Part shown: positions 25,911-59,814 of the stretch, one piece after another
Layout of the letters: each line of letters begins with the position of its first letter
Position numbering within the stretch: position 1 is the first letter of the stretch
Assembly (NCBI GenBank): GCA_934096535.1
Contig: CAKOMC010000001.1
Location: 1,255-65,254 of the forward strand
Direction of reading: 5' to 3'
Length of the DNA stretch: 64,000 nt
Origin: an uncultured Bacilli bacterium
Lineage (GTDB): Bacteria; Bacillota_I; Bacilli_A; RF39; UBA660
Notes under the pieces: generated by a model
Told to the model about the DNA's origin: nothing
What the model saw: the letters and a program-made list of their open reading frames with translations, nothing else
The model's database searches: none
Position numbers and translations under genes: made by a program

Positions 25911-27113
25911 TTAGTTATCATTAAGTATCATTGTTATTCTAGCAAAACCATTACCATGATTACCCGTCATTTCAGTATTATCTATATGTGATGGCATTTT
26001 CAAATAATCATCTTTTTCGGTTGTCCAGTTATACCCATTACCATCAATCATTACGGTATTTGTAAAATAAAGTCCCGAATAATGAATACTCCCGCCAGTA
26101 TGAATTATATTATCTTCAGTACTTTCTTTTTTTATTGCATCGCAACCATTATGCCCAGAAATGAAAGATGAACCTCCGGCTCCCGAAGAAACATTTGCAA
26201 ATGTACTTAATCCGGAACCACCGCCGTAATATCCGCCACCACCAGTTCCATAGCTATCACAAGCATCAACAGCATAACCGAATTTGCTATTACAAGTAAG
26301 ATTAGAACCAACTCCATAACTAGTTTGACTACCACCAGTTGCAACTTTATGAATATGGCTATAATCTCCACTTCTAATATTACCACTATAACCAATTAAA
26401 CCACCAGCAGCACCACCAATTAAAGAAGAATTCAAATATTTTCCAGTTCCTGCGCCACCTGCCGCGACCATAATTCTTGATTTTAAGGAATTAAAATCAT
26501 TCCAATTACCATTAACTATTCTAATATCGGTGGCACCACCGCCACCCGTATATTTTCCATCGGTTCCAGAGCCTCCAGCGGCTCCACCATTATAACCACC
26601 TTTAATGGAAAAAGTGGAACCACCAACATAAATATATAATTTTTGATTTTTTTCTAAATTGATTGTTCCCGAAGTATAACCACCTAATCCACCTTGATAA
26701 GTTGTATCACTAATAGTTACATCACCACCACTTGCTCCCCAAGCTTCAATTTTATATGTCCCCTTAATTGGAGCCGTAAAGGCTTGAACATTACCAGTAT
26801 AATCAAAATTAAATACGGTATCGCCATTATAAAAATATAAATTACATTTAACCTTTTTAGTTAAATTTTTTAATAACAACCCCCAAGACTCATTATCCCA
26901 CACTGCCTCAATATTTTCATCATCACATACAGCCTCATCAAATATAGCTTCCCCTTTTTTAGGAAAATCATCTTGCCTAACATTATTCATAAAAACGCCA
27001 AGTTCAGAACTATTTAATAACTTATTATCTTTATCATTAAATTGAATATTTCTAAAAATTAAAAGAATACCAACTAATAAAAGCACCCAGAAAAATCTTT
27101 TCATTATTATCAA
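25911..27113 (-). CDS. secreted glycine-rich protein, member of the 'C..W.L..KKxKCNLYF' N-terminal-module family
   Basis: Signal anchor, then AVCDDENIEAVWDNESWGLLLKNLTKKVKCNLYF (the shared module). About 250 aa of Gly-rich repeats follow (GGAAGGSGTDGKYTGGGGATD..., AAGGAGTGKY...). Confidence 0.75.
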   Translation of the reverse strand: MIIMKRFFWVLLLVGILLIFRNIQFNDKDNKLLNSSELGVFMNNVRQDDFPKKGEAIFDEAVCDDENIEAVWDNESWGLLLKNLTKKVKCNLYFYNGDTVFNFDYTGNVQAFTAPIKGTYKIEAWGASGGDVTISDTTYQGGLGGYTSGTINLEKNQKLYIYVGGSTFSIKGGYNGGAAGGSGTDGKYTGGGGATDIRIVNGNWNDFNSLKSRIMVAAGGAGTGKYLNSSLIGGAAGGLIGYSGNIRSGDYSHIHKVATGGSQTSYGVGSNLTCNSKFGYAVDACDSYGTGGGGYYGGGSGLSTFANVSSGAGGSSFISGHNGCDAIKKESTEDNIIHTGGSIHYSGLYFTNTVMIDGNGYNWTTEKDDYLKMPSHIDNTEMTGNHGNGFARITMILNDN

Positions 27114-27166
27114 CCTACTATCTTCTTTATTTTATCATCTATTGGACCCTCTGTCCATATATTTTT

Positions 27167-27430
27167 ATGGATAATTTGTCCATACTATTCTTAGGATGTG
27201 ATAAAATGTTACATGATGATACTTACTATTTTGATATAATAAGAGCTAATATTAAAAAAGAGCGGGAAAAGAAAGGCTTAACTCAACAACAACTTGCTGA
27301 CAAAGCCGGTATTACTATGAATTATTTAGCCAAAATTGAAAGTCAAAAGATGGGTCGGGGCTTTACTATTGTAATTCTTGGCCGCATTGCTGATGCTTTA
27401 GAAATCGACATAAAAAATCTTTTTAATTGA
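27167..27430 (+). CDS. XRE-family HTH transcriptional regulator
   Basis: LTQQQLADKAGITMNYLAKIE is a helix-turn-helix. It is divergent from the Gly-rich family gene. The true start may be the Met at ~27209. Confidence 0.7.
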   Translation: MDNLSILFLGCDKMLHDDTYYFDIIRANIKKEREKKGLTQQQLADKAGITMNYLAKIESQKMGRGFTIVILGRIADALEIDIKNLFN

Positions 27431-27449
27431 CTTAAAATTAAAAAAAGAA

Positions 27450-27977
27450 TTAATCTCTTTTCAAGGTTAATTCTTTATTTTTAGGCTTACTTTCTTGAAC
27501 TACAATTTTATCATACAAAGCATTGGGAAAACTAATTAATGTTTTTAAACCCGATAGTTCATAATTTTTATCTTCTGTATAATGTTTAGGAATAACTACA
27601 TAATCATGATAATCAAAAAGTTCATTTAAACGATAAGCTAAAAAAATCCCATCTTTCTCATAAAGTGCTAAGTACATTGAATAACGGTTTGCCTTGGTAT
27701 AATTATAATCTAGACAATCATCATCATCTTTAAGAGGCATAGTTCTTTGAAATTGTCTACCAACATATTCGGAACTTTTTAAAAATTCTTCTAAGCTAAT
27801 AAAGTATTTATTTACTTCATCTAAACTAGCAAACTCTTTTCTATAATCTTCACAAGTTAAAATATAGCCATTTTCCATTTCTTGTAAATGCCAAAAGCCA
27901 TTCAACCCACCAATGTTAAGAGAATACTTTTCTTCCTTTCCGTCTTTATCTCTTTTAATATAAATATTACTCTGCAT
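27450..27977 (-). CDS. hypothetical protein (175 aa)
   Basis: ORF only. Confidence 0.4.
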   Translation of the reverse strand: MQSNIYIKRDKDGKEEKYSLNIGGLNGFWHLQEMENGYILTCEDYRKEFASLDEVNKYFISLEEFLKSSEYVGRQFQRTMPLKDDDDCLDYNYTKANRYSMYLALYEKDGIFLAYRLNELFDYHDYVVIPKHYTEDKNYELSGLKTLISFPNALYDKIVVQESKPKNKELTLKRD

Positions 27978-45657: not shown

Positions 45658-46362
45658 TTAATTAATCTTTACAGTATCATTATAAGTGATATCCCCACTA
45701 TTTACAAGCAAATTCATAATGGTATTACCATATTTATCAATGTATAGTTCATAAGTTTTTATAGTTGTATTTTCTTTATCTTTTAAATAATTTTCTTTTG
45801 CTTCTTCGATACTATTATTTGTTATTTTACCAGCACTTTTTATTTCGTCCAGACTCATTATATGACCATCTTTTTTACTAAAGGTATAATATTTTAAAGT
45901 GTTATTATCTTCATCACTTGTTATATTTATATGTCCTTTAATAGTTCCAACCGTTATATAATTATCACTTTCTAATATATCATATTTCAAATAGTCAGCT
46001 TCATAAATCTTATTATCATCATCTAATTCATAAACAATATCTTTTTTATCAATAACAACTTCATCTATGGTTTTAATACTTTTTTCAGCCTTAATCATTT
46101 CTTCATTTAATAAGTTTTCTAATTCCTTAGCGTCCTTACTATCAAAATTAAGATGAATAGTATTATAAACTAAGTCTAAATCTTCGGATACAGTCTTGAT
46201 ATCAGTAAAATAAACATAATCTTTCGAGTTATCCATTCTTATATCTACAATTTTAGTAGTTGGCTTTTGACCTTTATTTCTAATTAAATAGTTACCACCT
46301 AATAAAAGTACAAAAATAATTAAGACAAACATGGTAACACTAAGATAATTCTTTTCTTGCAT
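45658..46362 (-). CDS. membrane-anchored hypothetical protein (234 aa)
   Basis: An N-terminal transmembrane helix followed by a soluble domain. Confidence 0.4.
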   Translation of the reverse strand: MQEKNYLSVTMFVLIIFVLLLGGNYLIRNKGQKPTTKIVDIRMDNSKDYVYFTDIKTVSEDLDLVYNTIHLNFDSKDAKELENLLNEEMIKAEKSIKTIDEVVIDKKDIVYELDDDNKIYEADYLKYDILESDNYITVGTIKGHINITSDEDNNTLKYYTFSKKDGHIMSLDEIKSAGKITNNSIEEAKENYLKDKENTTIKTYELYIDKYGNTIMNLLVNSGDITYNDTVKIN

Positions 46363-46940
46363 TAGTTATAATCCGCCTCACTTAAATAAGTATTTATTTT
46401 GTTGTGAAAACTCGTAATTGCATCTTCATTCCAATAAGTATCGGGTCTCATATCAAAAGATACTAAAGATGTTTCGTCATCATAATTAATAATTTTACCA
46501 TCTTTAACAAATATTAAAGCCGGTGTAAATAGGTATTCTGCTCCCATATCCGTAATTTTTAAATATTTACTAAGTAAATCTTCTATTTGTCTAAAATTTT
46601 TCGTCTTTTTAGTTCTATCTTCTATAACATCATAATAATAAACTTTCGTAATATTATTTTCTTTTAAAACGGGGTATAGTTCCCGAACATATTCTTGCAT
46701 CCACGCATTACTAGAAAACCCTACTAGGATAATTCCCGTCTCATTATTTAAAATATTTAAAACTCGATTAGAATTAACATAAACAAAGGGATTATCCGTA
46801 TCAATAGTTGTATATTCTTTACTAAATCGTTCCGCATCAGTTATGGTACTACTAAAATCTTTTTTTCCTAAGTAGACAAAGCACCATATCAAAAAAGCAA
46901 ATAAAACTAAATATATAAAATTTCTTGTTATTTTTTTCAT
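46362..46940 (-). CDS. membrane-anchored hypothetical protein (192 aa)
   Basis: An N-terminal transmembrane helix followed by a soluble domain. It is translationally coupled to the upstream gene. Confidence 0.4.
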   Translation of the reverse strand: MKKITRNFIYLVLFAFLIWCFVYLGKKDFSSTITDAERFSKEYTTIDTDNPFVYVNSNRVLNILNNETGIILVGFSSNAWMQEYVRELYPVLKENNITKVYYYDVIEDRTKKTKNFRQIEDLLSKYLKITDMGAEYLFTPALIFVKDGKIINYDDETSLVSFDMRPDTYWNEDAITSFHNKINTYLSEADYN

Positions 46941-46954
46941 TAAATCATTACTTC

Positions 46955-48229
46955 CTAATCTTTGAATTTAAAAACATAACCCTCAATTTCAATGTCATCA
47001 TTTAAAGTTGCCCCAGCATTAAGCAAGGCTTCTTCAACACCCATACCTTTTAATTTTCTAGAAAATCTTGCCACGGACTCATCTTCCGTAAACTTGGTCA
47101 TCTTAAATAATTTACTAATCTCAGTTCCTTCAACACGCCACATGCCATTAACTTTTTTTACTGTAAAAGGTAGGACATTTTCATATTTGTAAACAACATG
47201 AGAAGCATAATCTTCTTCTGAATATAGCTCATCTTTAGGAGTTTTCTCGATTATATCCATTAATCTAGTCATGGCTTTATCAATTCCGTCTTGCTTAATT
47301 GCTGAAATTGGTATTACTTCAACATCAGGATATGCTTTTTTAAATTTTTCTAAATTAGCCTTGGCATCTGGCAAATCCATTTTATTAGCTAATACAATCA
47401 TTGGTTTACCCGTCATTTTCTTACTATATTTATTAATCTCGGTATTAATAATTTTGTAGTCGCAGATGGGATCGCGGCCTTCACTACTTCCCATATCCAC
47501 TACATGGGCTAAAACTTTGGTACGCTCAGCATGTCTTAAAAATTTAAGTCCTAAACCAACGCCATCGGCGGCTCCTTCGATTAACCCCGGTAAATCTGCC
47601 ATGACAAAACTACGACCGTCATTTAATTTTACCACCCCTAAATTAGGTGATAATGTTGTAAAATGATAAGCAGCAATTTTCGGTTTAGATGATGATATTA
47701 CTGATAAAAGAGTAGACTTACCAACACTTGGAAAACCAACTAACCCCACATCAGCTAATACTTTAAGTTCACATTTGATTAGTTTTTCTTCCCCTGGTTC
47801 CCCATACTCACTAGTTTTAGGTGCAGGATTTTCATGTGTTGCAAACGCTTTATTACCACGGCCCCCACGACCACCTTGGCAAATCGTAAAACGCTCTTTA
47901 TCATGAGTTAAATCAACTAAAACTAAATTGGTATTAGCATCATACACAGTTGTTCCTTCCGGAACTTTAATGATTATATCTTTAGCATCAGCCCCCGTAC
48001 GATTAGACCCTTTACCATTATCGCCCTTTTCGCCTTTAACAATTTTATTATATCTTAAATCAACTAATGTTCTTAAACCTTTATCAACTTCAAAAATAAT
48101 ATTTGCTCCATGACCGCCATTGGCCCCATCTGGTCCTAAATTAGGCATACACTTTTCATGATGAAAAGAAGTACAACCATCTCCACCTTTACCTGCTATT
48201 AATTTTATTGTTATCTCATCTACAAACAT
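46955..48229 (-). CDS. obg: GTPase Obg/CgtA
   Basis: MFVDEITIKLIAGKGGDGCTSFHHEKCMPNLGPDGANGGHGANI is the Obg fold. G1 is GFPSVGKST and G3 is DLPGLIEGA. A C-terminal OCT domain is present. Confidence 0.92.
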   Translation of the reverse strand: MFVDEITIKLIAGKGGDGCTSFHHEKCMPNLGPDGANGGHGANIIFEVDKGLRTLVDLRYNKIVKGEKGDNGKGSNRTGADAKDIIIKVPEGTTVYDANTNLVLVDLTHDKERFTICQGGRGGRGNKAFATHENPAPKTSEYGEPGEEKLIKCELKVLADVGLVGFPSVGKSTLLSVISSSKPKIAAYHFTTLSPNLGVVKLNDGRSFVMADLPGLIEGAADGVGLGLKFLRHAERTKVLAHVVDMGSSEGRDPICDYKIINTEINKYSKKMTGKPMIVLANKMDLPDAKANLEKFKKAYPDVEVIPISAIKQDGIDKAMTRLMDIIEKTPKDELYSEEDYASHVVYKYENVLPFTVKKVNGMWRVEGTEISKLFKMTKFTEDESVARFSRKLKGMGVEEALLNAGATLNDDIEIEGYVFKFKD

Positions 48230-48379
48230 TATAATGCACCTTCATTTCTTCTTTATTTTATCAAATTACTTATAGTATGTCTAACTAAATTAATTCTATT
48301 TACAAGATACTTAACATTTTCAAAGTTATTCATTTTTATTTTCAAACTCTTATCTTTAAGCTTTAAAAAAACTATGCTT

Positions 48380-48589
48380 TTACATAAATCTGTTCATTTG
48401 ACGCATAGTTTCTTTTATTTGTTTCTGTGAAGGTTTCCTTCCCATACTACTAAACATAACTTCGATCATTTTCTCATTAATTGGGGGATTTTTCTTCATT
48501 TCTTTTTGGACTAATTTTCTTGTTACTATAAATCCAATAACAAAGCCAATAATAAGTCCTAAAAGAATTAATAATATATCATGTAACAT
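48380..48589 (-). CDS. UPF0154 (YneF-like) small membrane protein
   Basis: ILLILLGLIIGFVIGFIVTRKLVQKEMKKNPPINEKMIEVMFSSMGRKPSQKQI matches the YneF family pattern. Confidence 0.7.
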   Translation of the reverse strand: MLHDILLILLGLIIGFVIGFIVTRKLVQKEMKKNPPINEKMIEVMFSSMGRKPSQKQIKETMRQMNRFM

Positions 48590-48631
48590 AATAATTCTCC
48601 TTACGAGAAGATTGTACTAAAAAAAGTATTT

Positions 48632-49054
48632 TTAAGCAATACTTTCTATCCAAAAATAATCCTGATTTTGAAAATCACAAGCAAAAAGATTACTATTTGT
48701 CTTTAGTTTACTAAAAAACTCTGGTTTAGCAGCTGTTGTTTCCATAACTAAATAAGCATTGCCAATTTTTAGTTTAGTTTCTTCATCATTATAGTAGTTA
48801 TTGTAAATATGCGTATTCATAAATTTTGTATAATGGTCATTATTACGATAACTCGTAAACAAATAATTATTTAGTTCTAATTTGTTAATCGGGCTAACCA
48901 TCTTCTCATACATATTTATCCCATATTCTTGTTCATTACTATTTAACATGTAAATATTTTGAAATGACTTAAATAAGTTATAGGGACAAACTCTTGTCAT
49001 TTTCTTAAACTCATTATTAATATTAAAAATATAAAACTTTCTCAAATTTATCAC
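48632..49054 (-). CDS. hypothetical protein (140 aa)
   Basis: ORF only. It is divergent from variable-family gene 1. Confidence 0.35.
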   Translation of the reverse strand: MINLRKFYIFNINNEFKKMTRVCPYNLFKSFQNIYMLNSNEQEYGINMYEKMVSPINKLELNNYLFTSYRNNDHYTKFMNTHIYNNYYNDEETKLKIGNAYLVMETTAAKPEFFSKLKTNSNLFACDFQNQDYFWIESIA

Positions 49055-49141
49055 CTATTAAAAGTATATATGATTACTTTGAAAAATTATGTCGAATTAT
49101 TAGACCTGTTAAAACTTTTTTCAGGTCTTAAAAGCTCAAAA

Positions 49142-49166
49142 TTCATAGAGTATAAAACTCTATGAA
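49142..49166. repeat. recombination-site-like element (9-bp palindromic arms + 7-bp core TATAAAA)
   Basis: Seen directly in the sequence. Confidence 0.7.
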
Positions 49167-49394
49167 AGCTAATTTTCGGTATCTCTATTTAACTTATAAC
49201 TTAAATATACCATAGTTTTTCTTCTTTTTAAAGGAGATTTTTTATAGTTTTATAGTCAAATTTCTAGTCAAGAGCTTTTATGTCAAAGCCAGTATTTACC
49301 TTGTTTTCAATCCATTTTTTTAGTCAAATAAAAATAAAATTTCTGGTCAAAATTATCGTCAAGCGCCTAATTTTACTAGGTTTTTCCTACTATT

Positions 49395-49419
49395 TTCATA
49401 GAGTTTTATACTCTATGAA
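49395..49419. repeat. recombination-site-like element (core TTTTATA, reverse complement of the 49142 site core)
   Basis: Seen directly in the sequence. Confidence 0.7.
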
Positions 49420-49451
49420 GCCTAAAGTTCGACAAATAAGGAGTTTTGACT

Positions 49452-50612
49452 ATGAAAAAGAAATATCTTATAACGAGGTTTATAATAATTTTAGGAACAC
49501 TTGTTCTCTCAAGAATAAATATAAGTAACAATAAAGACTTAGCAGTTTATATTGAAAACGAACTAAATTCATCAATTCCTGCTAGTAACGAGAATCTTTA
49601 TGTAAATAAAATAGATTGTGATAACAATGTAAATGCTTATTGGGATAATGATAAATGGGGTTTATTTATTAGTAACTTTTCTAAAAAAACTAAGTGTAAC
49701 TTATACTTTATCCATGATACTGAAAAGCCTTATTGGCAAATGGAAAGTGTTGAAAAAGTAAATGTTTTATCAACTGATATCTTGGAATTTAAAATTGCTG
49801 GCACCGATTCTTTAGGCAATGTCTCTTCTAATCTTGATATTAGTAATTTATCCTTCTATGTTAATGACGAATTAGAAAGTCCAATTAAAGTTGAACTTAC
49901 TAAGTTAGAAGAATTAAATAAAAAGATAACCTACTCTATAAAAGTCCACATGGTTGGAGGAGCCGGCAATCTAAAAGTTAAAATCAGTAGTGGTACTTTA
50001 ACTGATACTAGTAATAATCAAAATGCTGAAATAACTTTAGATACTGGAATTAATGTAAGTAAAAATCCGGCTAAAATTTTTAATTTTTATACCGATAAAT
50101 TTCCAGAAAATTCTGTCTGGCCGAAATACTATCGAAATCTATTAAATAATTATTACAATGATGTTACGCATAGTAATAATCCTACTCTAGATGAAATAGC
50201 TTCTGGAGATTATGATTTAATATTTTTTAATAATGATTGTTGGACTGTACCACCCGTAGCAAATTATATTTTTAGTTTGGGCATTAATGTATTTAGCGTT
50301 GGAAATGACAGCACTTCTGCTCTTGACATAATTAGCACATTTACCGAAAATAATAAAGTTGGTAACCATAAAAAAGTAATAAATAATGGCTTGACACACT
50401 ACTTACCTGATTTATTCGCTGGTAGCGAAGATAATTTAAATTTAATCAAATTTTCAGAAGAGGCTACTGTTCTTTACAAAAACGAAACTAACAACACAGA
50501 ATATGACAGTATTGGTTATATGATTAAAAACAATAAAATATGGTTGCATTCTCAATATATATCGAGTAATTATGTTATTCCTATGATACAATTTGCGCTT
50601 GGACAACTATAA
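49452..50612 (+). CDS. variable-family secreted/membrane-anchored protein 1 (conserved N-terminal module + divergent C-terminal domain)
   Basis: RBS AAGGAG lies 8 nt before the ATG at 49452 (the ORF-track start at 49446 is a TTG). MKKKYLITRFIIILGTLVLS is a signal anchor. The module is ...NKIDCDNNVNAYWDNDKWGLFISNFSKKTKCNLYF. Confidence 0.8.
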   Translation: MKKKYLITRFIIILGTLVLSRINISNNKDLAVYIENELNSSIPASNENLYVNKIDCDNNVNAYWDNDKWGLFISNFSKKTKCNLYFIHDTEKPYWQMESVEKVNVLSTDILEFKIAGTDSLGNVSSNLDISNLSFYVNDELESPIKVELTKLEELNKKITYSIKVHMVGGAGNLKVKISSGTLTDTSNNQNAEITLDTGINVSKNPAKIFNFYTDKFPENSVWPKYYRNLLNNYYNDVTHSNNPTLDEIASGDYDLIFFNNDCWTVPPVANYIFSLGINVFSVGNDSTSALDIISTFTENNKVGNHKKVINNGLTHYLPDLFAGSEDNLNLIKFSEEATVLYKNETNNTEYDSIGYMIKNNKIWLHSQYISSNYVIPMIQFALGQL

Positions 50613-50638
50613 TTAATTTATGACCAAAAAAGCAAAAT

Positions 50639-50663
50639 TTCATAGAACATATTACTCTATGAA
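50639..50663. repeat. recombination-site-like element (core CATATTA; one arm mismatch)
   Basis: Seen directly in the sequence. Confidence 0.65.
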
Positions 50664-50903
50664 AGCAGAAAATCGACATTTATTTTTAATTTATATGTTA
50701 ACTATATCACAGTTTTAAGGCTTTTAAAAGAGTCTTTTTTTATCTATTATAGTCATTTTTGTAGTCAAATAATTTTGGTATAAAGTCTGTAAATCCAAGA
50801 CTCTGTAGAAAAATTTGTAGTCAAATATTCACATTCTTTTGTGGTCAAAATTCATGGTCAAAATTTTTCAATCCTCAATAAATACGGGCTTTGCAAGCCA
50901 TTT

Positions 50904-50928
50904 TTCATAGAGTAATATGCTCTATGAA
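50904..50928. repeat. recombination-site-like element (core TAATATG)
   Basis: Seen directly in the sequence. Confidence 0.7.
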
Positions 50929-50960
50929 GCCTAAAGTTCGACAAATAAGGAGTTTTGACT

Positions 50961-52121
50961 ATGAAAAAGAAATATTTTATAACGGGGTTTATAATAATTT
51001 TAGGAATACTTGTTCTCTCAAGAATAAATTTAAATAACAATAAAGACTTAGCGGTTTATATTGAAAACGAACTAAATTCATCAATTCCCGCTAGTAATGA
51101 GAATCTTTATGTAAATAAAATAGATTGTGATAACAATGTAAATGCTTATTGGGATAATGATAACTAGGGTTTATTTATTAGTAACTTTTCTAAAAAAACT
51201 AAGTGTAACTTGTACTTTATCCATGATACTGAAAAGCCTTATTGGCAAATTGAAGAGGTTGAAAAAACAAGTGTTTTATCTACGGATATCTTTACTATAA
51301 AAATTTCTGGTAATGATTCATTAAGTAAAGTTACATCAAGTCTTGATACAAGTAGTTTATCATTTTATGTTAACGACACTTTGCAATCACCAATTAAAGT
51401 TGAACTTACTAAACTAGAAGAATCAAACAAAAAAATCATCTACTCTCTCAAAGTCCATATGATTGGTGGCGAAGGAAATCTAAAGTTAAAAATTAATAGT
51501 AACACTTTAACAGATAATGAAACCAATCAAAATGATGAAATTACATTAGACACAGGCATTACTGTAAGTAAAAATTCGGCTAAAATCTTGCATTATTATA
51601 GTACAAACGAAACTGAGGCTAGTATTCACTCCAACAAAGAAACACTAGATAAATACTATAATAATGTTACACATACAAACAACTATACACAAGAAAAAAT
51701 CATTTCCGAAAAATTTGATTTAGTATTTTTAAACTCTTCCGTTTGGGGAGTCCCTTCTACAGCAAACAATATTTTTAGTGCCAATATAAATTTGCTTAGC
51801 CTTGGCAATGATACAAATGACTATTTGGATATAATTAAAACCAGTGCTTCCAGCAAGTCGTCGGTAAATTCTTCGATGAAAGTATTGAATAACAAACTAA
51901 CATATTATATGCCTGATTATATTGCAGGCAGCACCGACAGTCAAAGACTAATTAAATTTAATAGCGATGTTAATATTTTATATAAAAATACTACAAATGA
52001 TGTCGAATATGATTCTATTGGTTACATTGAGCAAAATGGAAGAACTTGGCTACATTCTCAAATTGCTGAAAGCCAATATTACATTATTCCAATGGTGCAA
52101 TTTACGCTTGGTCAACTATAA
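50961..52121 (+). pseudogene. variable-family gene 2, interrupted by a single in-frame TAG (TGG to TAG in the conserved W of the ...WDNDN-W-GLFISNF motif)
   Basis: ORFs 50955-51167 and 51210-52121 are in the same frame. The stop codon at 51165-51167 replaces the Trp codon that genes 1 and 3 carry at the equivalent position (gataaatgggg vs gataactaggg). The downstream reading continues GLFISNFSKKTKCNLYFIHDTEKPYWQ... Confidence 0.7.
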
Positions 52122-52144
52122 TATTATTAGTTAACCTCTTATTT

Positions 52145-52169
52145 TTCATAGAGCTTATAACTCTATGAA
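52145..52169. repeat. recombination-site-like element (core CTTATAA)
   Basis: Seen directly in the sequence. Confidence 0.7.
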
Positions 52170-52409
52170 AGCAGAAAATCGACATTTATTTTTAATTTAT
52201 ATGTTAACTATATCACAGTTTGAAGGCTTTTAAAAGAGTCTTTTTTTATCTATTATAGTCATTTTTGTAGTCAAATAATTTTAACTTAAAGTCTATAAAC
52301 TCAAGGCTTTGTAGGAAAATTTGTAGTCAAATATTCACATTCTTTTGTGGTCAAAATTTATGGTCAAATTTTTATAAGCTAAGGTAAGCACCGACTTCGA
52401 AGGCCATTT

Positions 52410-52434
52410 TTCATAGAGTTATAAGCTCTATGAA
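52410..52434. repeat. recombination-site-like element (core TTATAAG)
   Basis: Seen directly in the sequence. Confidence 0.7.
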
Positions 52435-52465
52435 GCCTAAAATTCGTTAAAAAGGAGTTTTGACT

Positions 52466-53629
52466 ATGAAAAAGAAATATTTTATAACGGGATTTATAAT
52501 AATTTTAGGAATACTTGTTCTATCAAAGGTAAGCATAAATAGCAATAAAGACTTAGCAGTTTATATTGAAAACGAACTAAATTCATCAATTCCTGCTAGT
52601 AACGAGAATCTTTATGTAAATAAAATAGATTGTGATAACAATGTAAATGCTTATTGGGATAATGATAATTGGGGGTTATTCATTAGTAACTTTTCTAAAA
52701 AAACTAAGTGTAACTTGTACTTTATCCATGATACTGAAAAGCCTTATTGGCAAATTGAAGAAGTTGAAAGAACTAGTGTTTTATCTACGGATATCTTTAC
52801 TATAAAAATTTCTGGTAATGATTCTTTAAGTAAAGTTACCTCAAGTCTTGATACAAGTAGTTTATCATTTTATGTTAATGATACCTTGCAATCACCAATT
52901 AAAGTTGAACTTACTAAATCAGAAGAATTAAATCAAAAAATCACCTACTCTCTCAAAGTCCATATGGTTGGTGGCGAAGGCAATCTAAAGTTAAAAATTA
53001 ATAGTAACACTTTAACAGATAATGAAACCAATCAAAATGATGAAATCACATTAAACACAGGCATTACGGTAAATAAAAATCCTGCAAAAATCATGCACTT
53101 CTATGACTCCAGTTTTACTAGTGCATCCTATCAACTTAACTTTTATAAAAATCTCCTAGATAATTATTATAAAAATGTAACTCATAACAGTAATCCCTCA
53201 TTAGATGAACTAGCTTTAGGAAATTATGACTTGATTTTCTTTAATAATGGTTGCTGGACAGTTCCAACCGTAGCAAATTATATTTTTAGTTTGGGCATTA
53301 ATGTATTTAGCGTTGGAAATGACAGCACATCTGCCTTGGATATAATTAGCACATCTATCACAGATAGTAAAGTTGGTAACCATAAAAAAGTAATAAATAA
53401 TGGCTTGACATACTATTTATCTGATTTAATTGCAGGTGGCGAAGATAATTTAAATTTAATTAAATTCGTTGATGAAGCAACCGTACTTTATAAAAATAAT
53501 ACAAACAACATTGAATACGACTCACTCGGTTATATAAAGAAGAACGATAAAACTTGGCTCCACTCGCAATACATTTCCAACAAATATATTATTCCCATTA
53601 TCCAATTTACTCTTGGCGAACTTAAGTGA
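52466..53629 (+). CDS. variable-family secreted/membrane-anchored protein 3 (close paralog of gene 1)
   Basis: RBS AAGGAG lies before the ATG at 52466. The N-terminal module is near-identical to gene 1. The C-terminal half (…FFNNGCWTVPTVANYIFSLGINVFSVGNDSTSALDIIS…) is a paralog of gene 1. Confidence 0.8.
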   Translation: MKKKYFITGFIIILGILVLSKVSINSNKDLAVYIENELNSSIPASNENLYVNKIDCDNNVNAYWDNDNWGLFISNFSKKTKCNLYFIHDTEKPYWQIEEVERTSVLSTDIFTIKISGNDSLSKVTSSLDTSSLSFYVNDTLQSPIKVELTKSEELNQKITYSLKVHMVGGEGNLKLKINSNTLTDNETNQNDEITLNTGITVNKNPAKIMHFYDSSFTSASYQLNFYKNLLDNYYKNVTHNSNPSLDELALGNYDLIFFNNGCWTVPTVANYIFSLGINVFSVGNDSTSALDIISTSITDSKVGNHKKVINNGLTYYLSDLIAGGEDNLNLIKFVDEATVLYKNNTNNIEYDSLGYIKKNDKTWLHSQYISNKYIIPIIQFTLGELK

Positions 53630-53857
53630 TTTTAAGAAAAAATACTTGCTTACTCAATAAAACTAGCGTATTATATCCTATATCTTATAAACATAATAAG
53701 TCATAATAGTTTTTTTCCTTACTATATATAGAACTAAAACTAGTAAAAAGTATGTTAAATTAAAAAAGCATACTTTTTTTTATCATTAAATAAAACTTGC
53801 CAATTTAAAATTAACTCTTTATCTTCATAGCCAAAATCAATATAAATTAATAACTTT

Positions 53858-53873
53858 GGGGTGGGTGGGTGGG
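53858..53873 (+). other. G-quadruplex-forming motif GGGGTGGGTGGGTGGG
   Basis: Four G3+ tracts separated by single T loops, in a genome that is otherwise about 25-28 % GC. It lies in the convergent intergenic region after the tandem variable-gene cluster. Confidence 0.6.
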
Positions 53874-53929
53874 AAGTAATACTAAACAAAAAGAAAATTA
53901 AAAAAAGATTAACTAATAATCAAGCTAAC

Positions 53930-55357
53930 CTAATTTTTAATCTTAATAATCTTATGTCTATTATCCCATAACTTAAGCAACTTATTTATAACAACACTAC
54001 CTAATATAAAAACTGTAACATTAATAAAATAAGTATATCGAGGCTGAATTTCTATTAACATATACACTAAAGTATTCGTAATAAATAAAATATAAAAATA
54101 AAATAAATTACTATTTAAAATATCTTTTTTCTTTAAATACACTCCTACTACTAAACCTAGTATCATAAAACCATAAATAACTTTATTAACCCCTGATATT
54201 AAATCTTCTAAAGTTTTATAAGCTACTTCTAGTCCTAGTACTTTAATCTTCTTATCATTATAAATACCACTACTTGATTCTAAAGAACCATTTAAAACAA
54301 AATTATTAGTCTTACATAAAAGAAGTTTACCTACTTTATATGGATTATTAATTCTTTCTTTAATAACTTCTAACTCTCTAGTTTCGTCCCCTAAATAGAT
54401 TTCATCATTGGTATCATATCTACCACAAGTATCGGGATTAGTACCTAAAACAAATTTCCATAAGGGATTATTATTTTTAAGACCATCTTCATTAATATTA
54501 CTCTTAACTAAATATGTAGAAACTCCTATATTTACTAAAGAATAGAAACAAACAAAAATACTACATCTTACTACTGTAATTAACCATTTTTTACTTTTAA
54601 GAATATCTTTTTTAGTTAATTTTAAAACTCTATATAAAAGATAACTAAAAATGATAACAATACCTTCGGGTCTTAAAACATTAGAAAGTCCTAAAATGAT
54701 ACCAGCAATAATATAATTTGATAATTTATCTTCTTTATTATTTTTTAAAAGAAAATAAATACTTAAATAACTAAGCAAAGCACTTAAATGATGATTAGAA
54801 ATAACTGTTGCTGAATATATGGAAAAGGGAAATACAGCATATAAAGCGGCTGTTATTCTAGCGGGAGTTTCTCCTACTAACGCTTTAACGGTCTTATAAA
54901 TAAAATAAGTTAAACCAATTTCATAGAAAATATTTAAAAGTTTTAAAAATAGCTCGCTATTAACTATTTTTAACATTAAGGCCTCATATAAAACAAAACC
55001 GGTCTGATAAGGCCACATTGCAAAGTAACCACTCTTACTAAAACTGTAGTCTCCTAATTTAAACTTTCTTGCAGCCTCTAACAAAACCGCAAAATCACTA
55101 GTCTGGGGGACATTAAATACAATAATACCCACAATTCTAACTAAAGTTGCTATTAAAAGTAAATAAAAAACAAAGTGTTTTCCTTTATACTTTCTAATAA
55201 TAAAAATAATGCTAACTATTAGAAATAGTCCTAAAAGTAAATTATTACTAATAAGAAAGACTAAACTTAAAAATACGGGAATAACAAGACTAACATTCAT
55301 AAAAAACTTATCTAATTTAAAATTATTTTTAAATATATTTAATTTATTTTTTAACAT
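53930..55357 (-). CDS. polytopic membrane protein, putative GT-C glycosyltransferase (ArnT/PMT, GT39-like)
   Basis: About 11 transmembrane helices over 475 aa, with an N-terminal region resembling the GT39/PMT_2 fold (…YFAMWPYQTGFVLYEALMLKI…ITAALYAVFPFSIYSATVISNHH…). Confidence 0.45.
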   Translation of the reverse strand: MLKNKLNIFKNNFKLDKFFMNVSLVIPVFLSLVFLISNNLLLGLFLIVSIIFIIRKYKGKHFVFYLLLIATLVRIVGIIVFNVPQTSDFAVLLEAARKFKLGDYSFSKSGYFAMWPYQTGFVLYEALMLKIVNSELFLKLLNIFYEIGLTYFIYKTVKALVGETPARITAALYAVFPFSIYSATVISNHHLSALLSYLSIYFLLKNNKEDKLSNYIIAGIILGLSNVLRPEGIVIIFSYLLYRVLKLTKKDILKSKKWLITVVRCSIFVCFYSLVNIGVSTYLVKSNINEDGLKNNNPLWKFVLGTNPDTCGRYDTNDEIYLGDETRELEVIKERINNPYKVGKLLLCKTNNFVLNGSLESSSGIYNDKKIKVLGLEVAYKTLEDLISGVNKVIYGFMILGLVVGVYLKKKDILNSNLFYFYILFITNTLVYMLIEIQPRYTYFINVTVFILGSVVINKLLKLWDNRHKIIKIKN

Positions 55358-55456
55358 ATAAACCTACCTTTCTTATCCAGTATAAAATAATTAGCTCATT
55401 TTCGCAACATTTCTATTGGCAAGAATAAGATTTTGCGTTAAAATGTTTATAGGAAT

Positions 55457-55532
55457 TGCCTAGTAGCCAAGTGGTAAGGCATCAGATTCTGACTCTGACA
55501 TTTCGTGGGTTCGAGTCCTACCTAGGCAGCCA
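55457..55532 (+). tRNA. tRNA-Gln (CTG)
   Basis: TGCCTAGTAGCCAAGTGGTAAGGCATCAGATTCTGACTCTGACATTTCGTGGGTTCGAGTCCTACCTAGGCAGCCA. It has a 3-bp D-stem with the GCCAAG(Y)GGTAAGGC D-arm typical of tRNA-Gln, anticodon loop TTCTGAC (CUG), discriminator G and an encoded CCA. Confidence 0.85.
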
Positions 55533-55543
55533 TTATGTTTATT

Positions 55544-55567
55544 AAGACCTTGAGGGGTCTTTTTATT
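55544..55567 (+). terminator. rho-independent terminator after tRNA-Gln
   Basis: An AAGACC-ttgagg-GGTCTT hairpin followed by TTTATT. Confidence 0.55.
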
Positions 55568-55728
55568 GTAATTTTTTTGCTTTATTTTAAAATTTAATTT
55601 ATTTATAATTAAGTACTATATTATAAAGTGTTAGTAAAATTAATATAAAAAATGAATTTAGAAATATTTAAAAACTCTTTGAAAATAAAAGAAACTATAT
55701 TATAATAGACAAAGAAAAGAGGAATATT

Positions 55729-57366
55729 ATGACAAATAAAGAATTAGCAGACATTTTACTTCCTAATGTCTTACATGATTATAAATATTATGAAGAAAAA
55801 TATCCAGAAAGAAATCTAAGTGCCGGAGCTTATGTAACTCGTTTTGCTCCATCTCCTACTGGTTTCGTTCACATGGGAAGTTTATATACTTCTTTTGCGG
55901 CTTTACAGCTGGCTAAACAAACTAAAGGGATATGTTTCTTAAGAATTGAAGATACTGATGGTAAAAGAACCGTTTTAAATGGGGTTCAAGGTATTATTGA
56001 TGATTTTAAAAACTTGGGGATTACTTTTGATGAAGGCCAAGGTTTTGGTGGTGAATATGGTCCTTACTTACAATCAGAGAGAAAAGATATTTATCAAGCC
56101 TATGCTAAAAAATTAATTGCAGAAGGTCTAGCTTACCCATGTTTTTGTACCCCAGAGCATTTAGAAGAAATAAGAAGTTATCAAGAACATAAAAAGTTGC
56201 GTTTAGGTTATTATAAAAAATATGCTAAATGTCGTGACTTAACGATGGCAGAAATTAAAGAACATTTAGATAAGGGCGATAAATATATTATTCGTTTCCG
56301 TAGTCAAGGCGATTTTGAAAATAAAATTATTTTGCATGATGCCATCAAAGGCGATATTGAAATGCCGGAAAATGATATTGATGATGTTATTATTAAAAGT
56401 GATGGTCTACCTACTTATCATTTTGCCCATGTTGTTGATGATCATTTAATGCATACAACCCATGTTACTCGTGGGGATGAATGGGTAGCTAGTTATCCTA
56501 AACATCATGAATTATTTAAACTTTTAGGTTTTAAAGAACCTGTTTACGCTCATATTGCCCCAATTACTATTAAAGAAGGAACAACAGTTCGTAAATTAAG
56601 TAAAAGAAAAGATAAAGAAGCTGCTATTAGTTACTATCAAAAGTTAGGTATTCCAACGGAAGTTATTAGATTATACTTAGCTACTATTGAAAATTATGAC
56701 TTTGAAGAATGGTATAATGCTAATCCAGATAAAGGTATTGATGACTTTACTTTTGAATTTAGTAAAATGCCTATCGGTGGTACTCTATTTGATATGGAAA
56801 AACTACAAAGTATTGCTAAAATTTACTTTAGTCGTTTAAAAAACTATGAATTATATGATATGGCTTTAAAATATACTAAAGAATATGATGAAGAATTTTA
56901 TAATATTTTAGTAAATAATAAAGAATACGCTCTTAATGTCTTTAATATTGAAAGAGATATTGAAAGACCTCGTAAAGATATTGCTGCCCTAAGTGATGTA
57001 AAAACCGAATTTAGTTATATGTTTAATGATTTATTTTATAAAGATACTAATCCTTATGCAGAATGTAGGGTATGTGATAAAAATATTGTTCTAGATTATA
57101 TTAATAATGTTTATAATGAAGCTGATACTCAAGAAGAATGGTTTAATAATTTAAAAGAATTTGCGGTAGAAAATAACTACTCAGCAGATAAAAAGGCTTA
57201 TAAGGCTGAGCCCGATAAATTTAATGGTATGGTAGCCGATTTCTGTGCCTTACTTCGTATCATTATTTGTAAGAAAAATCAATCCCCAAATATTTATTAT
57301 TTAATTAAATATCTAGGTAAGATTGAATTAGTTAAGAGAATTAATAAGTTCTATGAAGAAAAATAG
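55729..57366 (+). CDS. gltX: glutamyl-tRNA synthetase-like class I aaRS
   Basis: RFAPSPTGFVHMGSLYTSF is a HIGH-region variant (HMGS), LRIEDTDGKR is GluRS-specific and VRKLSKRKD is the KMSKS variant KLSKR. Size is 545 aa. tRNA-Gln lies about 200 bp upstream. Confidence 0.85.
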   Translation: MTNKELADILLPNVLHDYKYYEEKYPERNLSAGAYVTRFAPSPTGFVHMGSLYTSFAALQLAKQTKGICFLRIEDTDGKRTVLNGVQGIIDDFKNLGITFDEGQGFGGEYGPYLQSERKDIYQAYAKKLIAEGLAYPCFCTPEHLEEIRSYQEHKKLRLGYYKKYAKCRDLTMAEIKEHLDKGDKYIIRFRSQGDFENKIILHDAIKGDIEMPENDIDDVIIKSDGLPTYHFAHVVDDHLMHTTHVTRGDEWVASYPKHHELFKLLGFKEPVYAHIAPITIKEGTTVRKLSKRKDKEAAISYYQKLGIPTEVIRLYLATIENYDFEEWYNANPDKGIDDFTFEFSKMPIGGTLFDMEKLQSIAKIYFSRLKNYELYDMALKYTKEYDEEFYNILVNNKEYALNVFNIERDIERPRKDIAALSDVKTEFSYMFNDLFYKDTNPYAECRVCDKNIVLDYINNVYNEADTQEEWFNNLKEFAVENNYSADKKAYKAEPDKFNGMVADFCALLRIIICKKNQSPNIYYLIKYLGKIELVKRINKFYEEK

Positions 57367-57393
57367 TCCCATCAAAGACTATCTTTTTTATAC

Positions 57394-58887
57394 CTAATTT
57401 TTAGTAATAACATTTCTAAACGAAACATCATCATAATCTTTTCCACTACCATTTGTTGATAAAAAAATACCAGCCCTACTTCCGGATAAATAGCTACCAC
57501 CTCTTGCCATTGCAGGTCCATTTTCCCATAAAGCGTAAGATGTATCATTATACCAAGTTGAAGAAGTTGAACTTCTAACCTCTTTAGTAGCATCGCCAAG
57601 AGAATACATCTCAAACGAAGTATGATTTAAAAATATATATTTATCAAAATACTTATCTAAAGGAATATTGTCATCATTAAAGCCAGTATCGCTATACAAA
57701 TTTTTATTTTGATTGCCATCAATCAACAAAACCATAACAGCTTCATAAGAACAACCACTTAAATCATATATTCCAAATACATTCCCAGTAGTAGAAGCAT
57801 TAACGCCATTTTCATTCCACCTAAAATTAGTTGGGCATAAATCATTTTCTGAAGCTTCGGAATCAACGCTTGTTCCAGAACACCCAGTAACATAACTTGC
57901 ATTATTATTAATCCAAACCTCACATCCACTTTCAATACAGTTATTTTTATCAATATATCGTCCATATTTAGAATTAGTAAGATAAGCAACCGCTCCCCAG
58001 TCCATATTTTTCATCATATGACTATCAATTTCAGTAGTGTTTAAACCATATAATAAATTGTTAATTAATTCTATATTTCTTGATATCATAAATTTACTAT
58101 ATAAATTTATATTTTTAATACTAACTAAATTAGGCTTTATCGTTGCCAAATCAGTCGTTCCTGTCATTTCAAACTTTCCTACCCAAATACCCGACAATTC
58201 TGTATCGCCAAAAGTAAAAGCTGGGTGAGTTAAATACTCGCCATTTTTGTTTCCATTTGCTTTTGGTCTTTCTGTACTTTCAAATATAATATTAATCATT
58301 TGTTCATCACTAACACCATTTTCGGCATTCCATAATCTATAACGATATCGTGGTATCCAAACATACATTTGTAAAATGTCATTCATATCTATAATTTGTC
58401 CGACCATATCTGGTTTTAAATTCATATTACTATCAAAATATTTATTTTTTACTGTGGTATCGCTACAATTAACCAAAACAGCATTCCCCCACTTATGATT
58501 TTCATAATCATACCAAAGAGAATTTTCATCAGCAATCAAAATATTTCCAGTATCATCATAAACAACAGGAATAAACCCTTGATAAAGTTCAGGCTTCGTA
58601 ACATCTTTTATTGTCTGAAAATACAAATTACACTTAGACTTTTTAGATAAATTACTAACAAATAGCCCCCACTCTTCATCATTCCAGGAAATATTAACAT
58701 CATTATCACAAACAGCCTTCGTAAAAACAGACTCATTCTTACTAGGAATTTTATCAGTTAATTCACCATCAAGATAATTAGCAATATATTCCTCTTTTAA
58801 TAAAGACTTACCAAATAATACATTTGCTGTATATAAAATCATTAATCCTATTATCACTATTAAAATCATCTTTTTTTTCATAATCAT
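57394..58887 (-). CDS. variable-family protein 4: conserved N-terminal module + C-terminal FGE-sulfatase (SUMF1/DUF323)-like domain
   Basis: The module is AVCDNDVNISWNDEEWGLFVSNLSKKSKCNLYF. The C-terminus carries …AMARGGSYLSGSRAGIFLS…VSFRNV, which matches the RGGSW…GFR signature of FGE-sulfatase domains. The likely start is ATG at 58881 or 58887, downstream of an AGGAG RBS. Confidence 0.75.
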   Translation of the reverse strand: MIMKKKMILIVIIGLMILYTANVLFGKSLLKEEYIANYLDGELTDKIPSKNESVFTKAVCDNDVNISWNDEEWGLFVSNLSKKSKCNLYFQTIKDVTKPELYQGFIPVVYDDTGNILIADENSLWYDYENHKWGNAVLVNCSDTTVKNKYFDSNMNLKPDMVGQIIDMNDILQMYVWIPRYRYRLWNAENGVSDEQMINIIFESTERPKANGNKNGEYLTHPAFTFGDTELSGIWVGKFEMTGTTDLATIKPNLVSIKNINLYSKFMISRNIELINNLLYGLNTTEIDSHMMKNMDWGAVAYLTNSKYGRYIDKNNCIESGCEVWINNNASYVTGCSGTSVDSEASENDLCPTNFRWNENGVNASTTGNVFGIYDLSGCSYEAVMVLLIDGNQNKNLYSDTGFNDDNIPLDKYFDKYIFLNHTSFEMYSLGDATKEVRSSTSSTWYNDTSYALWENGPAMARGGSYLSGSRAGIFLSTNGSGKDYDDVSFRNVITKN

Positions 58888-58911
58888 TCTCCTAAATAAC
58901 CATATTTCGGC

Positions 58912-58936
58912 TTCATAGAGTATACAACTCTATGAA
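58912..58936. repeat. recombination-site-like element (core TATACAA)
   Basis: Seen directly in the sequence. Confidence 0.7.
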
Positions 58937-59176
58937 AAACTGACCGTGAGACCCGTATTCACCTAGAAGTAGTAATTAATTGACCAGAAATTTTGACGAG
59001 AAAAAATTAGATTTATTGACTACAAAAGGTTCTTAGACTCAAGGTAACTAAAGACTTAGAAAGAAAATTAATTGACTATAAATTTGACTATAATAAAATT
59101 CAAAATCATCTTTAAAACATTTAAAAACTATGATATATTTAACATATAAGTTAAAAATAAACGCCGATTTTCCGCT

Positions 59177-59201
59177 TTCATAGAGTTGTATACTCTACGA
59201 A
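59177..59201. repeat. recombination-site-like element (core TTGTATA; one arm mismatch)
   Basis: Seen directly in the sequence. Confidence 0.65.
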
Positions 59202-59322
59202 AAAGTAAGTTTTATAGTCAAAAAAAAGGCCTTGTATCATCTAATCGATTTTAGGTCTTTTAATTATTATAATAAAAATACAATTCTAAATAATCTTTTT
59301 ATCCTTTTAAATAAATCTAAAA

Positions 59323-59712
59323 TTATTTGGTAAAATAAACACTACACTTAGTTTTAGCAACATCATTAGTTATAGTAAGACTCCAACTACTAGTATCAAA
59401 AGTAGCGGTTGCCCCATTCGTACAACTAACACTTTTTAAAACTAGACTAGTATCTTTACTAGGAAATCCCCCACTCACATAAGTATCATTAATAAAAGCA
59501 ATTTTCTTTATTGGTTCGTAAGTAAACTTGGCAACTGTCGTTCTTATAACCTCTTCTTCAGCGTGCGCTGTAAACTTTGAAAAAGCAAAATAAACCACCG
59601 TTGATAAACATAAACATAATGATACAGTGCCAATTCCATACTTCAAATATAAAACTCTATTTTTTTTACGCTCTATTTTTTTTAAAACTTTATTATAATC
59701 TTTACTCATCAT
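59323..59712 (-). CDS. short family member consisting of the N-terminal module only (129 aa)
   Basis: A signal anchor, then …SVSCTNGATATFDTSSWSLTITNDVAKTKCSVYFTK, which follows the same C…W.L…K.KC.(L/V)YF pattern. It ends 3 residues after the motif. It lies about 120 bp outside the distal site of switch 4, in the same orientation as gene 4. Confidence 0.5.
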   Translation of the reverse strand: MMSKDYNKVLKKIERKKNRVLYLKYGIGTVSLCLCLSTVVYFAFSKFTAHAEEEVIRTTVAKFTYEPIKKIAFINDTYVSGGFPSKDTSLVLKSVSCTNGATATFDTSSWSLTITNDVAKTKCSVYFTK

Positions 59713-59814
59713 AATAAAACCCTTTCTATCATACCTAAATTATAGCAAAAAATCCCAAAAGATAAAAGATAAACTTAAATTCTTGCAAGCAAAAAAAAGA
59801 TAAATGCTTGTGAC

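Follow-up and report, generated by a model that had tools for sequence, protein, structure and literature searches.

The integrases of phage lambda and of Tn916 recognise, besides core sites, a second class of site, represented by the arm sites P1, P2 and P'1-P'3 in lambda and by the DR2 repeats in Tn916. In an integrated lambda prophage or Tn916, these arms lie inside the element next to each end. A similar arrangement is present in four short cassettes of the DNA analysed here, a stretch of 64,000 nucleotides (the window) from contig CAKOMC010000001.1 of an uncultured Bacilli bacterium of the RF39 lineage (GenBank assembly GCA_934096535.1). Each cassette is bounded by inverted repeats (IRs), contains a predicted promoter and holds an oriented array of a short repeat, and these arrays mirror the placement of the lambda and Tn916 arms. 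The sites of all three systems are about 10-11 bp long and unlike the core sites. Each element has several copies in the same orientation, some of them in tandem at a distance of roughly one helical turn, and the copies lie within the element, between tens of bp and about 120 bp away from each core. AGTCA is also part of the lambda arm consensus, (C/A)AGTCACTAT. The copies of the repeat in the cassettes are read here as arm-type sites of an inversion intasome, with predicted binding by the N-terminal domain of a tyrosine recombinase, and the probability of this reading is put at about 0.5. An extra N-terminal domain of three strands plus a helix characterises the partner recombinases of lambda and Tn916 and is predicted for the recombinase linked to the cassettes (PMC8138268).

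The cassettes differ from lambda and Tn916 in several respects. They carry full, identical, palindromic cores in inverted orientation about 250 bp apart, an arrangement for inversion and not for excision or integration. They are 240-bp promoter cassettes rather than a phage or a transposon. At least 20 copies are present per genome, and one chromosomal recombinase is proposed to act on them in trans. The arm sites of the cassettes are putative.

The fimS switch of E. coli, a 314-bp element with the recombinases FimB and FimE and with sites for Lrp and IHF, is an invertible promoter served by a tyrosine recombinase, as is predicted for the cassettes. The fimS segment contains binding sites for accessory proteins that bring the DNA into a shape suited to recombination, and a comparable role is proposed for the sites in the cassettes. 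However, FimB and FimE belong to the simple tyrosine recombinases and have no arm-binding domain. The accessory sites of fimS bind global nucleoid proteins, whereas the motif in the cassettes is private to them and absent elsewhere in the genomes. In addition, fimS is a single locus with 9-bp IRs.

The systems of Bacteroides fragilis (Mpi), Clostridioides difficile (RecV) and Mycoplasma penetrans (mpl) resemble the present one in that many cassettes share one IR consensus and are associated with surface structures, and in that most cassettes are OFF in the consensus assembly. In contrast to the enzyme described below, Mpi is a serine recombinase. We know of no conserved internal array of two, one and two sites (2+1+2) in the Mpi, RecV or mpl systems. 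Engineered lox and FRT sites with heterospecific spacers are similar in combining identical binding arms with a cassette-specific central spacer. Here, unlike in those variants, the spacers are natural, and a genome may contain some of them more than once. Which sequence RecV recognises, and with which accessory factors, if any, has been stated to be an open question (PMC5914908). The searchable literature yielded no account of this system and none of arm-type sites in invertible promoters.

In the window, cassettes 1-3 lie 24-32 bp upstream of three tandem, paralogous plus-strand genes (genes 1-3), and cassette 4 lies upstream of a minus-strand gene at 57394-58887 (gene 4). Cassette 1 is 278 bp long. 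Its gene-distal IR (49142-49167) and its gene-proximal IR (49394-49419) are perfect 26-nt inverted repeats with 100% complementarity, and 49167-49394 is the interior. The distal IR has the core-type sequence TTCATAGAG-TATAAAA-CTCTATGAA+A. From IR to IR, cassette 2 spans 50639-50928 (+), cassette 3 spans 52145-52434 (+) and cassette 4 spans 58912-59201 (-). One repeat of cassette 2 is at 50639-50664, one of cassette 3 at 52145-52170 and one of cassette 4 at 58912-58937. All four cassettes end in 25/26-nt inverted repeats of the form TTCATAGAG-N7-CTCTATGAA, and each IR arm is a 9-7-9 palindrome by itself. The 7-nt centres of cassettes 1-4 are TATAAAA, CATATTA, CTTATAA and TATACAA, and within each cassette one arm has the centre of the other in exactly inverted form.

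The TAGTCAAA repeat is conserved over about 11 bp as TTnTRGTCAAa. Each window cassette contains five co-oriented copies at the same aligned positions. The first two stand 12 bp apart as a tandem pair, the third is a weaker site by itself, and the last two form another pair with a separation of 12-13 bp; the successive site-to-site spacings are 12, 56, 24 and 12-13 bp. In cassette 1, pair 1 (sites 1 and 2; TTATAGTCAAAT TTCTAGTCAAGA) is at 49250-49273, the middle site 3 (TTTTAGTCAAAT) is at 49318-49329 and pair 2 (sites 4 and 5; TTCTGGTCAAAA TTATCGTCAAGC) is at 49341-49364, all on the plus strand. The corresponding sites are at 50747-50770, 50815-50826 and 50839-50863 in cassette 2, at 52253-52276, 52321-52332 and 52345-52369 in cassette 3, and on the minus strand at 59070-59093, 59014-59025 and 58978-59002 in cassette 4. 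A position-weight scan finds the individual sites on one strand only, at 49250, 49262, 49318, 49341 and 49353 (cassette 1), 50747, 50759, 50815, 50839 and 50852 (cassette 2), 52253, 52265, 52321, 52345 and 52358 (cassette 3), and, on the minus strand, 59082, 59070, 59014, 58991 and 58978 (cassette 4). GTCA occurs at interior positions 88, 100, 156, 179/180 and 191-193 in every window cassette, always on the gene-sense strand. When cassette 4 is reverse-complemented and the four cassettes are aligned, the motif copies fall in shared columns with an invariant GTCA, and the intervening sequence is variable.

These copies exceed what the base composition of the cassettes produces. GTCAA is found 4-6 times on one strand of each window cassette, compared with a mean of 0.26-0.68 in dinucleotide shuffles, and the observed count is reached in 0, 11, 0 and 0 of 5000 shuffles for the four cassettes. 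Motif matches of at least 9 bits number 20 in the four cassettes and 18 on both strands of the remaining window (~126 kb). A preliminary description of this DNA had quoted several of the repeat strings, which are present where it placed them, and had given 5-7 copies per cassette at an irregular spacing of ~10-40 bp. The repeats themselves are confirmed, but the conserved number is five, the extra TATGTCAAAG in cassette 1 not being conserved, and the spacing is regular.

Additional good copies of the motif are present outside the window cassettes, all in the orientation opposite to that of the interior sites. They lie on the minus strand at 49444-49455, 50953-50964 and 52458-52469 and on the plus strand at 59212-59223. 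The TTTTGACTATGA copies overlap the start codons of genes 1-3, 23-24 bp beyond the proximal IR, and the copy flanking cassette 4 is 11 nt beyond the distal IR. Flank copies occur in only 8 of 101 cassettes of the wider family, in two homologous groups.

This family was found by searching for the IR core in one genome per species, which gave at least 105 loci; the family counts in this text are among the matches listed. Nearly all hosts are gut "uncultured Bacilli" metagenome-assembled genomes (MAGs), Mycoplasma sp. CAG:956 and Tenericutes UMGS735, record names that are read as RF39-type organisms. The cassettes come from at least 12 related genomes of the gut, and single genomes contain at least 20-25 of them. 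Positions 46290-49507 of the window are 96% identical to a contig of MAG CAKOMH, of which 8-kb pieces were covered. Many MAG contigs end in or at a cassette (loci L038, L040, L052, L054, L069 and others), a pattern that assembly breaks at mixed orientations or at repeated cassette sequence could explain.

A total of 105 distinct cassettes were extracted. Their interiors are 227-230 or 237-241 nt long, and the spacers are exactly inverted in 103 of them. In an alignment of 101 cassettes, the median pairwise identity is 0.63 (range 56-74%). These cassettes contain 42 different 7-nt spacers, which are mostly distinct within a genome, with some reused. The spacer is polar in the frame of the motif strand, with T as the first base in 82% and A as the last base in 99%. 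The cassette-specific spacers may be natural heterospecific crossover sites and could insulate the loci from one another. Tn916-family integrases tolerate spacer heterology, which weakens the case for such insulation.

Within the alignment, the mean top-base frequency is highest in the IRs (0.91), followed by sites 1, 2, 4 and 5 (0.81-0.87) and by the promoter block beside one IR (0.81). The remaining interior has a frequency of 0.61 and site 3 one of 0.55. The preliminary description had named AT-rich composition as a possible source of the motif once the cassettes are treated as one family; the motif survives this comparison, in that the columns of sites 1, 2, 4 and 5 stand well above the rest of the interior.

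The geometry of the array is nearly constant across the family. Exactly two tandem pairs are present in 90 of the 101 cassettes. The two sites of a pair are 12 bp apart in 161 cases and 13 bp apart in 38, and pair 1 is 91-93 bp from pair 2. The distance from the left IR to pair 1 is 87-89 or 98 bp, and that from pair 2 to the right IR is 36-38 or 47-48 bp. These length variants, at two defined places, differ by about 10 bp and therefore represent steps of about one helical turn. Measured from the IR centres, the pairs are at ~50-70 bp on one side and ~100-120 bp on the other. Strong sites are found 400 times on one strand and 0 times on the other. Their density is 13.7 per kb inside the cassettes and 0.11 per kb in 675 kb of flanking DNA. 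Tandem pairs number 160 inside cassettes and 7 in the flanking DNA. Because all seven of the latter are at contig ends beside a solo IR, they are regarded as truncated cassettes. The tandem pairs are exclusive to the cassettes.

The cassettes invert. Two different MAGs (L022 and L057) contain the same cassette, ~94% identical from IR to IR, with swapped flanks, the gene flank being on opposite sides. On the contig of L013, tandem paralogs are in opposite cassette states. Across the family, 82 cassettes have the orientation seen in the window, with GTCAA on the gene-sense strand, and 10 are flipped. A scan of JGI metagenomes gave 0 matches to the flipped junction of window cassette 1 and 0 matches to the generic ON junction of the cassette 1 gene family.

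In all four window cassettes, a promoter of the form TTTAAA-16/17-TGnTATAkT is predicted on the strand opposite the gene, pointing out through the distal IR. The predicted promoter of cassette 1 (49204-49232, minus strand, read from 49232 to 49204) consists of TTTAAA, a 17-nt spacer and a TG-extended TATATT, and would fire leftward, away from gene 1. Those of cassettes 2 and 3 run from 50728 to 50701 and from 52234 to 52207 on the minus strand. That of cassette 4 runs from 59111 to 59139 on the plus strand and points away from gene 4. Because the promoters of all four cassettes point away from their genes, the window cassettes are probably OFF. The minority state is probably ON. Each cassette is a predicted phase-variation switch of the invertible-promoter type (inverton), with the candidate promoter inside it. 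All 101 cassettes have a TG-extended -10 element (TGnTAnnnT) on the TTGAC strand, ~37 nt from one IR. Upstream of it, on the same strand, the TTGAC copies are at about -60, -72, -130, -153 and -165.

A gene-ward promoter that uses TATAGT in site 1 (TTTAAA-18-TATAGT) was rejected as a feature of the family. Its two elements are separated by a 10-bp insertion in 39 cassettes (class B), and many copies of site 1 read TGGTCA. Between the extended -10 element and the IR, in the predicted initial transcribed region, there is a block with the sequence TTATTTTTAAyTTATA (family consensus columns 43-58). In the window cassettes it is ~20-36 nt from the distal IR, for example at 50684-50700. It is conserved beyond what a promoter would need.

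A tyrosine recombinase gene adjoins a cassette, divergent from the controlled gene, in L002 (MAG CAKOOW) and in L096 (CAG:956). The 355-aa product matches the Pfam families Phage_integrase (E 7e-24) and Phage_int_SAM_3. Its closest solved relative is the Tn1549 integrase, both by sequence (E 1e-15) and by fold (E 1e-14, template modelling score 0.63-0.72), with 6EMZ and 6EMY as top fold matches. The catalytic residues R194, K239, H303, R306 and H329 and the nucleophile Y339 are invariant in 36 homologs. Extra strands predicted at residues 212-248 correspond to the beta insertion of the catalytic domain, and this region aligns to the Tn1549 integrase. The recombinase family is large, with 7436 matches at E<=1e-20.

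Residues 1-57 of the recombinase are predicted to form three strands and a helix (predicted local distance difference test score ~86). They are conserved in homologs down to ~40% overall identity, with I9, R12, D14, G15, E18, R20, Y32, Y40 and K46 invariant. For this domain alone, the rank-1 fold match in the PDB is the N-terminal DNA-binding domain of the Tn916 integrase (1BB8), although the match is weak (Foldseek E 0.6, probability 0.75). Among 23 N-terminal fragments, the only recurrent Pfam matches, all of them sub-threshold, are to PF02920, the Tn916 integrase DNA-binding domain (5 of 23; E 0.0056-0.08), and to AP2 (4 of 23). The AP2 fold is the same as that of PF02920. Predicted fold and family matches together give moderate support for an arm-binding N-terminal architecture in the linked L002/L096 recombinase. 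This architecture is described for the IntTn916 subgroup of "complex" tyrosine recombinases, where it was acquired by mobile-element integrases, and arm-binding recombinases are tied to mobile elements (PMC8138268).

Orthologs of the recombinase (51-74% identity) are found in conserved housekeeping synteny, either in the order BacA-recombinase-RmuC-RNase J or beside the valyl-tRNA synthetase gene, with PBP5 and Suf also nearby. No mobile-element genes were found around the orthologs in these loci. The recombinase appears from this context to be chromosomal and domesticated and not to act as a mobile-element integrase. Motif copies near the recombinase genes, as for autoregulation, were not found in L106 or L110-L113. 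In L002 (1224-2775) and L096 (3086-4603), the cassette is between the recombinase gene and the divergent, switched surface gene. Its predicted promoter points into the recombinase gene in the observed state, and this switch may modulate recombinase expression too.

Clostridial loci with the same core IR (L019, L053, L060 and L105) carry related recombinases, sometimes inside the invertible segment. Because of this, the enzyme clade is considered to pair with this core site. In a single case, the N-terminal domain is missing from a Clostridiales recombinase, and the adjoining cassette, which shares the core IR, has no GTCAA sites. This joint absence suggests that the domain and the sites are linked. 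In two Clostridia/Lachnospiraceae MAGs (L019:3906-5396 and L032:4250-5394), the same core IR pair flanks a segment of 1.1-1.4 kb. The L019 segment contains the recombinase gene itself and is therefore a self-inverting element.

In the proposed mechanism, the two 25-nt IRs would be core-type sites, each with a 7-nt crossover spacer between two 9-bp half-sites. A domesticated Tn916/Tn1549-family integrase would hold the IRs with its core-binding and catalytic domains and the arm sites with its N-terminal (AP2/Tn916-Int-like) domain. The four strong sites, in two tandem pairs 92 bp apart, would match the four protomers of a tyrosine-recombinase synapse. Bridging between arms and cores would fold the AT-rich ~240-bp segment into an intasome in which the IRs synapse. 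Strand exchange would take place across the 7-nt spacer and would be limited to the two IRs of one cassette. Such a complex would be an excision-type intasome on inverted cores. Because both arm clusters are inside the segment and travel with it, the same complex would form in both states and no directionality factor would be needed.

We infer that the N-terminal domain binds the motif sites and that this binding promotes inversion. An arm-binding domain under purifying selection would need arm sites, and the cassettes offer one private, oriented and fixed repeat. The preliminary description had suggested binding sites for a regulator or a recombination factor. The direction of this suggestion is supported by the oriented, cassette-only array of fixed geometry and by the linked recombinase with its predicted extra N-terminal DNA-binding domain. 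A wider scenario is put forward tentatively. In it, a Tn916-family integrase was captured together with its arm sites by a reduced-genome, RF39-like gut lineage, where it would run at least 20 promoter invertons through an excision-type intasome; the spacers would prevent exchange between loci. In that case, the cassettes would be the first invertons shown to rely on a heterobivalent integrase and private arm sites.

Several points weigh against arm-type sites. No recombinase is encoded in the 64-kb window. The linkage between recombinase and cassette is adjacency in two relatives only, and orthologs in other lineages have no adjoining cassette. The assignment of the N-terminal domain to the Tn916/AP2 type rests on sub-threshold matches and a predicted fold. 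A profile search of this domain against PDB sequences gave no integrase match and did not find the Tn916 domain. The motif is upstream of the promoter on the promoter's own strand, with pair 1 near -60/-72 or -70/-82, a position that suits a class-I activator. Lastly, the quantisation in steps of ~10 bp could arise from the total loop length rather than from the phasing of arms to cores.

The alternative that survives best takes the motif copies as operator or activator sites of a dedicated transcription factor, for example a response-regulator-like protein, which would act at pair 1 from about -60/-72 and at pair 2 by looping. The sites are upstream of the promoter and on its strand, and the distance from pair 1 to the -10 element is 50-52 or 60-61 bp, which keeps the helical phase. 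Tandem direct repeats about one turn apart are also typical of winged-helix activators. However, no tandem pair is present at any non-cassette promoter in the 675 kb, and the cassettes have no linked gene for a candidate regulator. Pair 2 is ~150 bp upstream, yet it is conserved like pair 1 and has a quantised distance to the far IR. A paralogous gene that has no cassette (25911-27113) has an Xre-type control region without such sites. A transcription factor would also leave the conserved extra DNA-binding domain of the recombinase without a target. Control by a dedicated regulator is unlikely on this evidence but is the main rival of the arm-site reading.

The geometry of the sites and their exclusivity to the cassettes would fit equally well if the motif were bound by a separate small architectural or accessory protein. 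Such a protein, Xis-like or in the role of Lrp or IHF, would bend the 240-bp segment for synapsis of the IRs. The head-to-tail tandem sites resemble the lambda Xis sites X1, X1.5 and X2. Sites for Lrp and IHF are present inside E. coli fimS (cited in PMC5914908). This alternative is nevertheless improbable. No small conserved open reading frame (ORF) was found beside the recombinase gene in L002, L096, L106 or L110-L113, and the recombinase's own DNA-binding domain is the more parsimonious partner.

A further proposal of the preliminary description, to read the TTGAC(T/C)A copies as a series of -35-like elements productive in one orientation, has very little left to recommend it. TTGAC is identical to the first five bases of the sigma-70 -35 consensus, and a few copies pair with weak -10 elements, such as TTGACC-17-AAGAAT and TTGACT-16-TAAAAT. 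However, a -10 element scoring at least 5/6 is found at 16-18 bp for only 45 of 414 TTGAC sites (11%), and the separate extended -10 promoter is present in every cassette aligned. The conserved TTnTRGTCAAa spans 11 bp, which is more than a hexamer, and tandem pairs 12 bp apart would make no sense as -35 elements.

That the motif is a functionless by-product of AT-rich composition or of an ancestral internal duplication is scarcely credible: some shared sequence is expected among paralogous cassettes, but the shuffles fail to reproduce the counts, the site columns exceed the interior (0.81-0.87 and 0.61) although the cassettes share only 63% identity, all 400 strong sites are on one strand, and the pairwise identities speak against recent copying of the 101 cassettes. 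Inversion of the Hin/Gin type with a Fis enhancer, which involves a serine invertase and 26-bp sites with a 2-bp core, was rejected, as the cores here are of the 9-7-9 type with a variable 7-nt spacer and the linked enzyme is a tyrosine recombinase.

If the sites are arm-type sites, the system works like the arm-core bridging of lambda and Tn916 on a fimS-like switch, used genome-wide as in the Mpi and RecV systems. Invertible promoters are a main route of surface variation in gut bacteria, and for most of them the way in which one recombinase locates, pairs and insulates many short switches is poorly understood. The architecture of the cassettes is legible in this respect, with palindromic cores and specific spacers, one promoter, a 2+1+2 array, helical-turn distances and a linked integrase. 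With an arm-type function, phase variation would be tied to the intasome mechanism that phages and conjugative transposons use, and a tyrosine recombinase of the mobile-element ("complex") kind would have been repurposed as a housekeeping invertase. The cassettes (~290 bp, with orthogonal spacers) would then form a compact, natural, multiplex inversion system with a possible use in synthetic biology. The family also points to programmed surface variation on a large scale in uncultured RF39-type bacteria, a common group in human guts.

The products of the four genes behind the window cassettes have an N-terminal membrane anchor and no Pfam domain. Gene 1 (49452-50612, +) encodes a membrane-anchored surface-protein candidate behind cassette 1, and gene 2 (50961-52121, +) and gene 3 (52466-53629, +) are its paralogs. 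An in-frame TAG interrupts gene 2 at 51165-51167, at the position of AAA TGG in gene 1. Gene 2 is a predicted pseudogene or split gene behind an intact switch. Gene 4 (57394-58887, -) encodes a surface-protein candidate behind cassette 4 with the same N-terminal module.

This module follows the anchor and is common to surface-protein candidates that are otherwise different. It reads C-D-N-x-V-N-x-x-W-D-N-x-x-W-G-L-F-I-S-N-x-S-K-K-T-K-C-N-L-Y-F and has no Pfam match. It is found in the window at 25911-27113, 49452-50612, 52466-53629, 57394-58887 and 59323-59712, and in L002 at 2850-4157. The ORF at 59323-59712 (129 aa) consists of the module alone. The fifth module protein, the cassette-less paralog at 25911-27113 (-), has a C-terminal ALK/LTK glycine-rich domain (PF12810). 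Its upstream region (27114-27450) contains a divergent Xre-like helix-turn-helix ORF and the palindromes TATGGACAaattaTCCATA and is without motif sites, which suggests a different mode of control for this gene. The same region was considered as a locked switch and rejected, being an unrelated Xre-type control region.

In an Rfam scan, the region 48500-59800 gave only a tRNA and chance-level matches. The tRNA gene (55457-55529, +; RF00005, 60.5 bits) is between a glycosyltransferase-like gene and gltX. Directly to the left of cassette 1 is a SirA-like ORF at 48632-49054 (-; PF10747, E 2e-7). In the present orientation, the predicted promoter of cassette 1 is aimed at this ORF across a possible hairpin at ~49100-49135.

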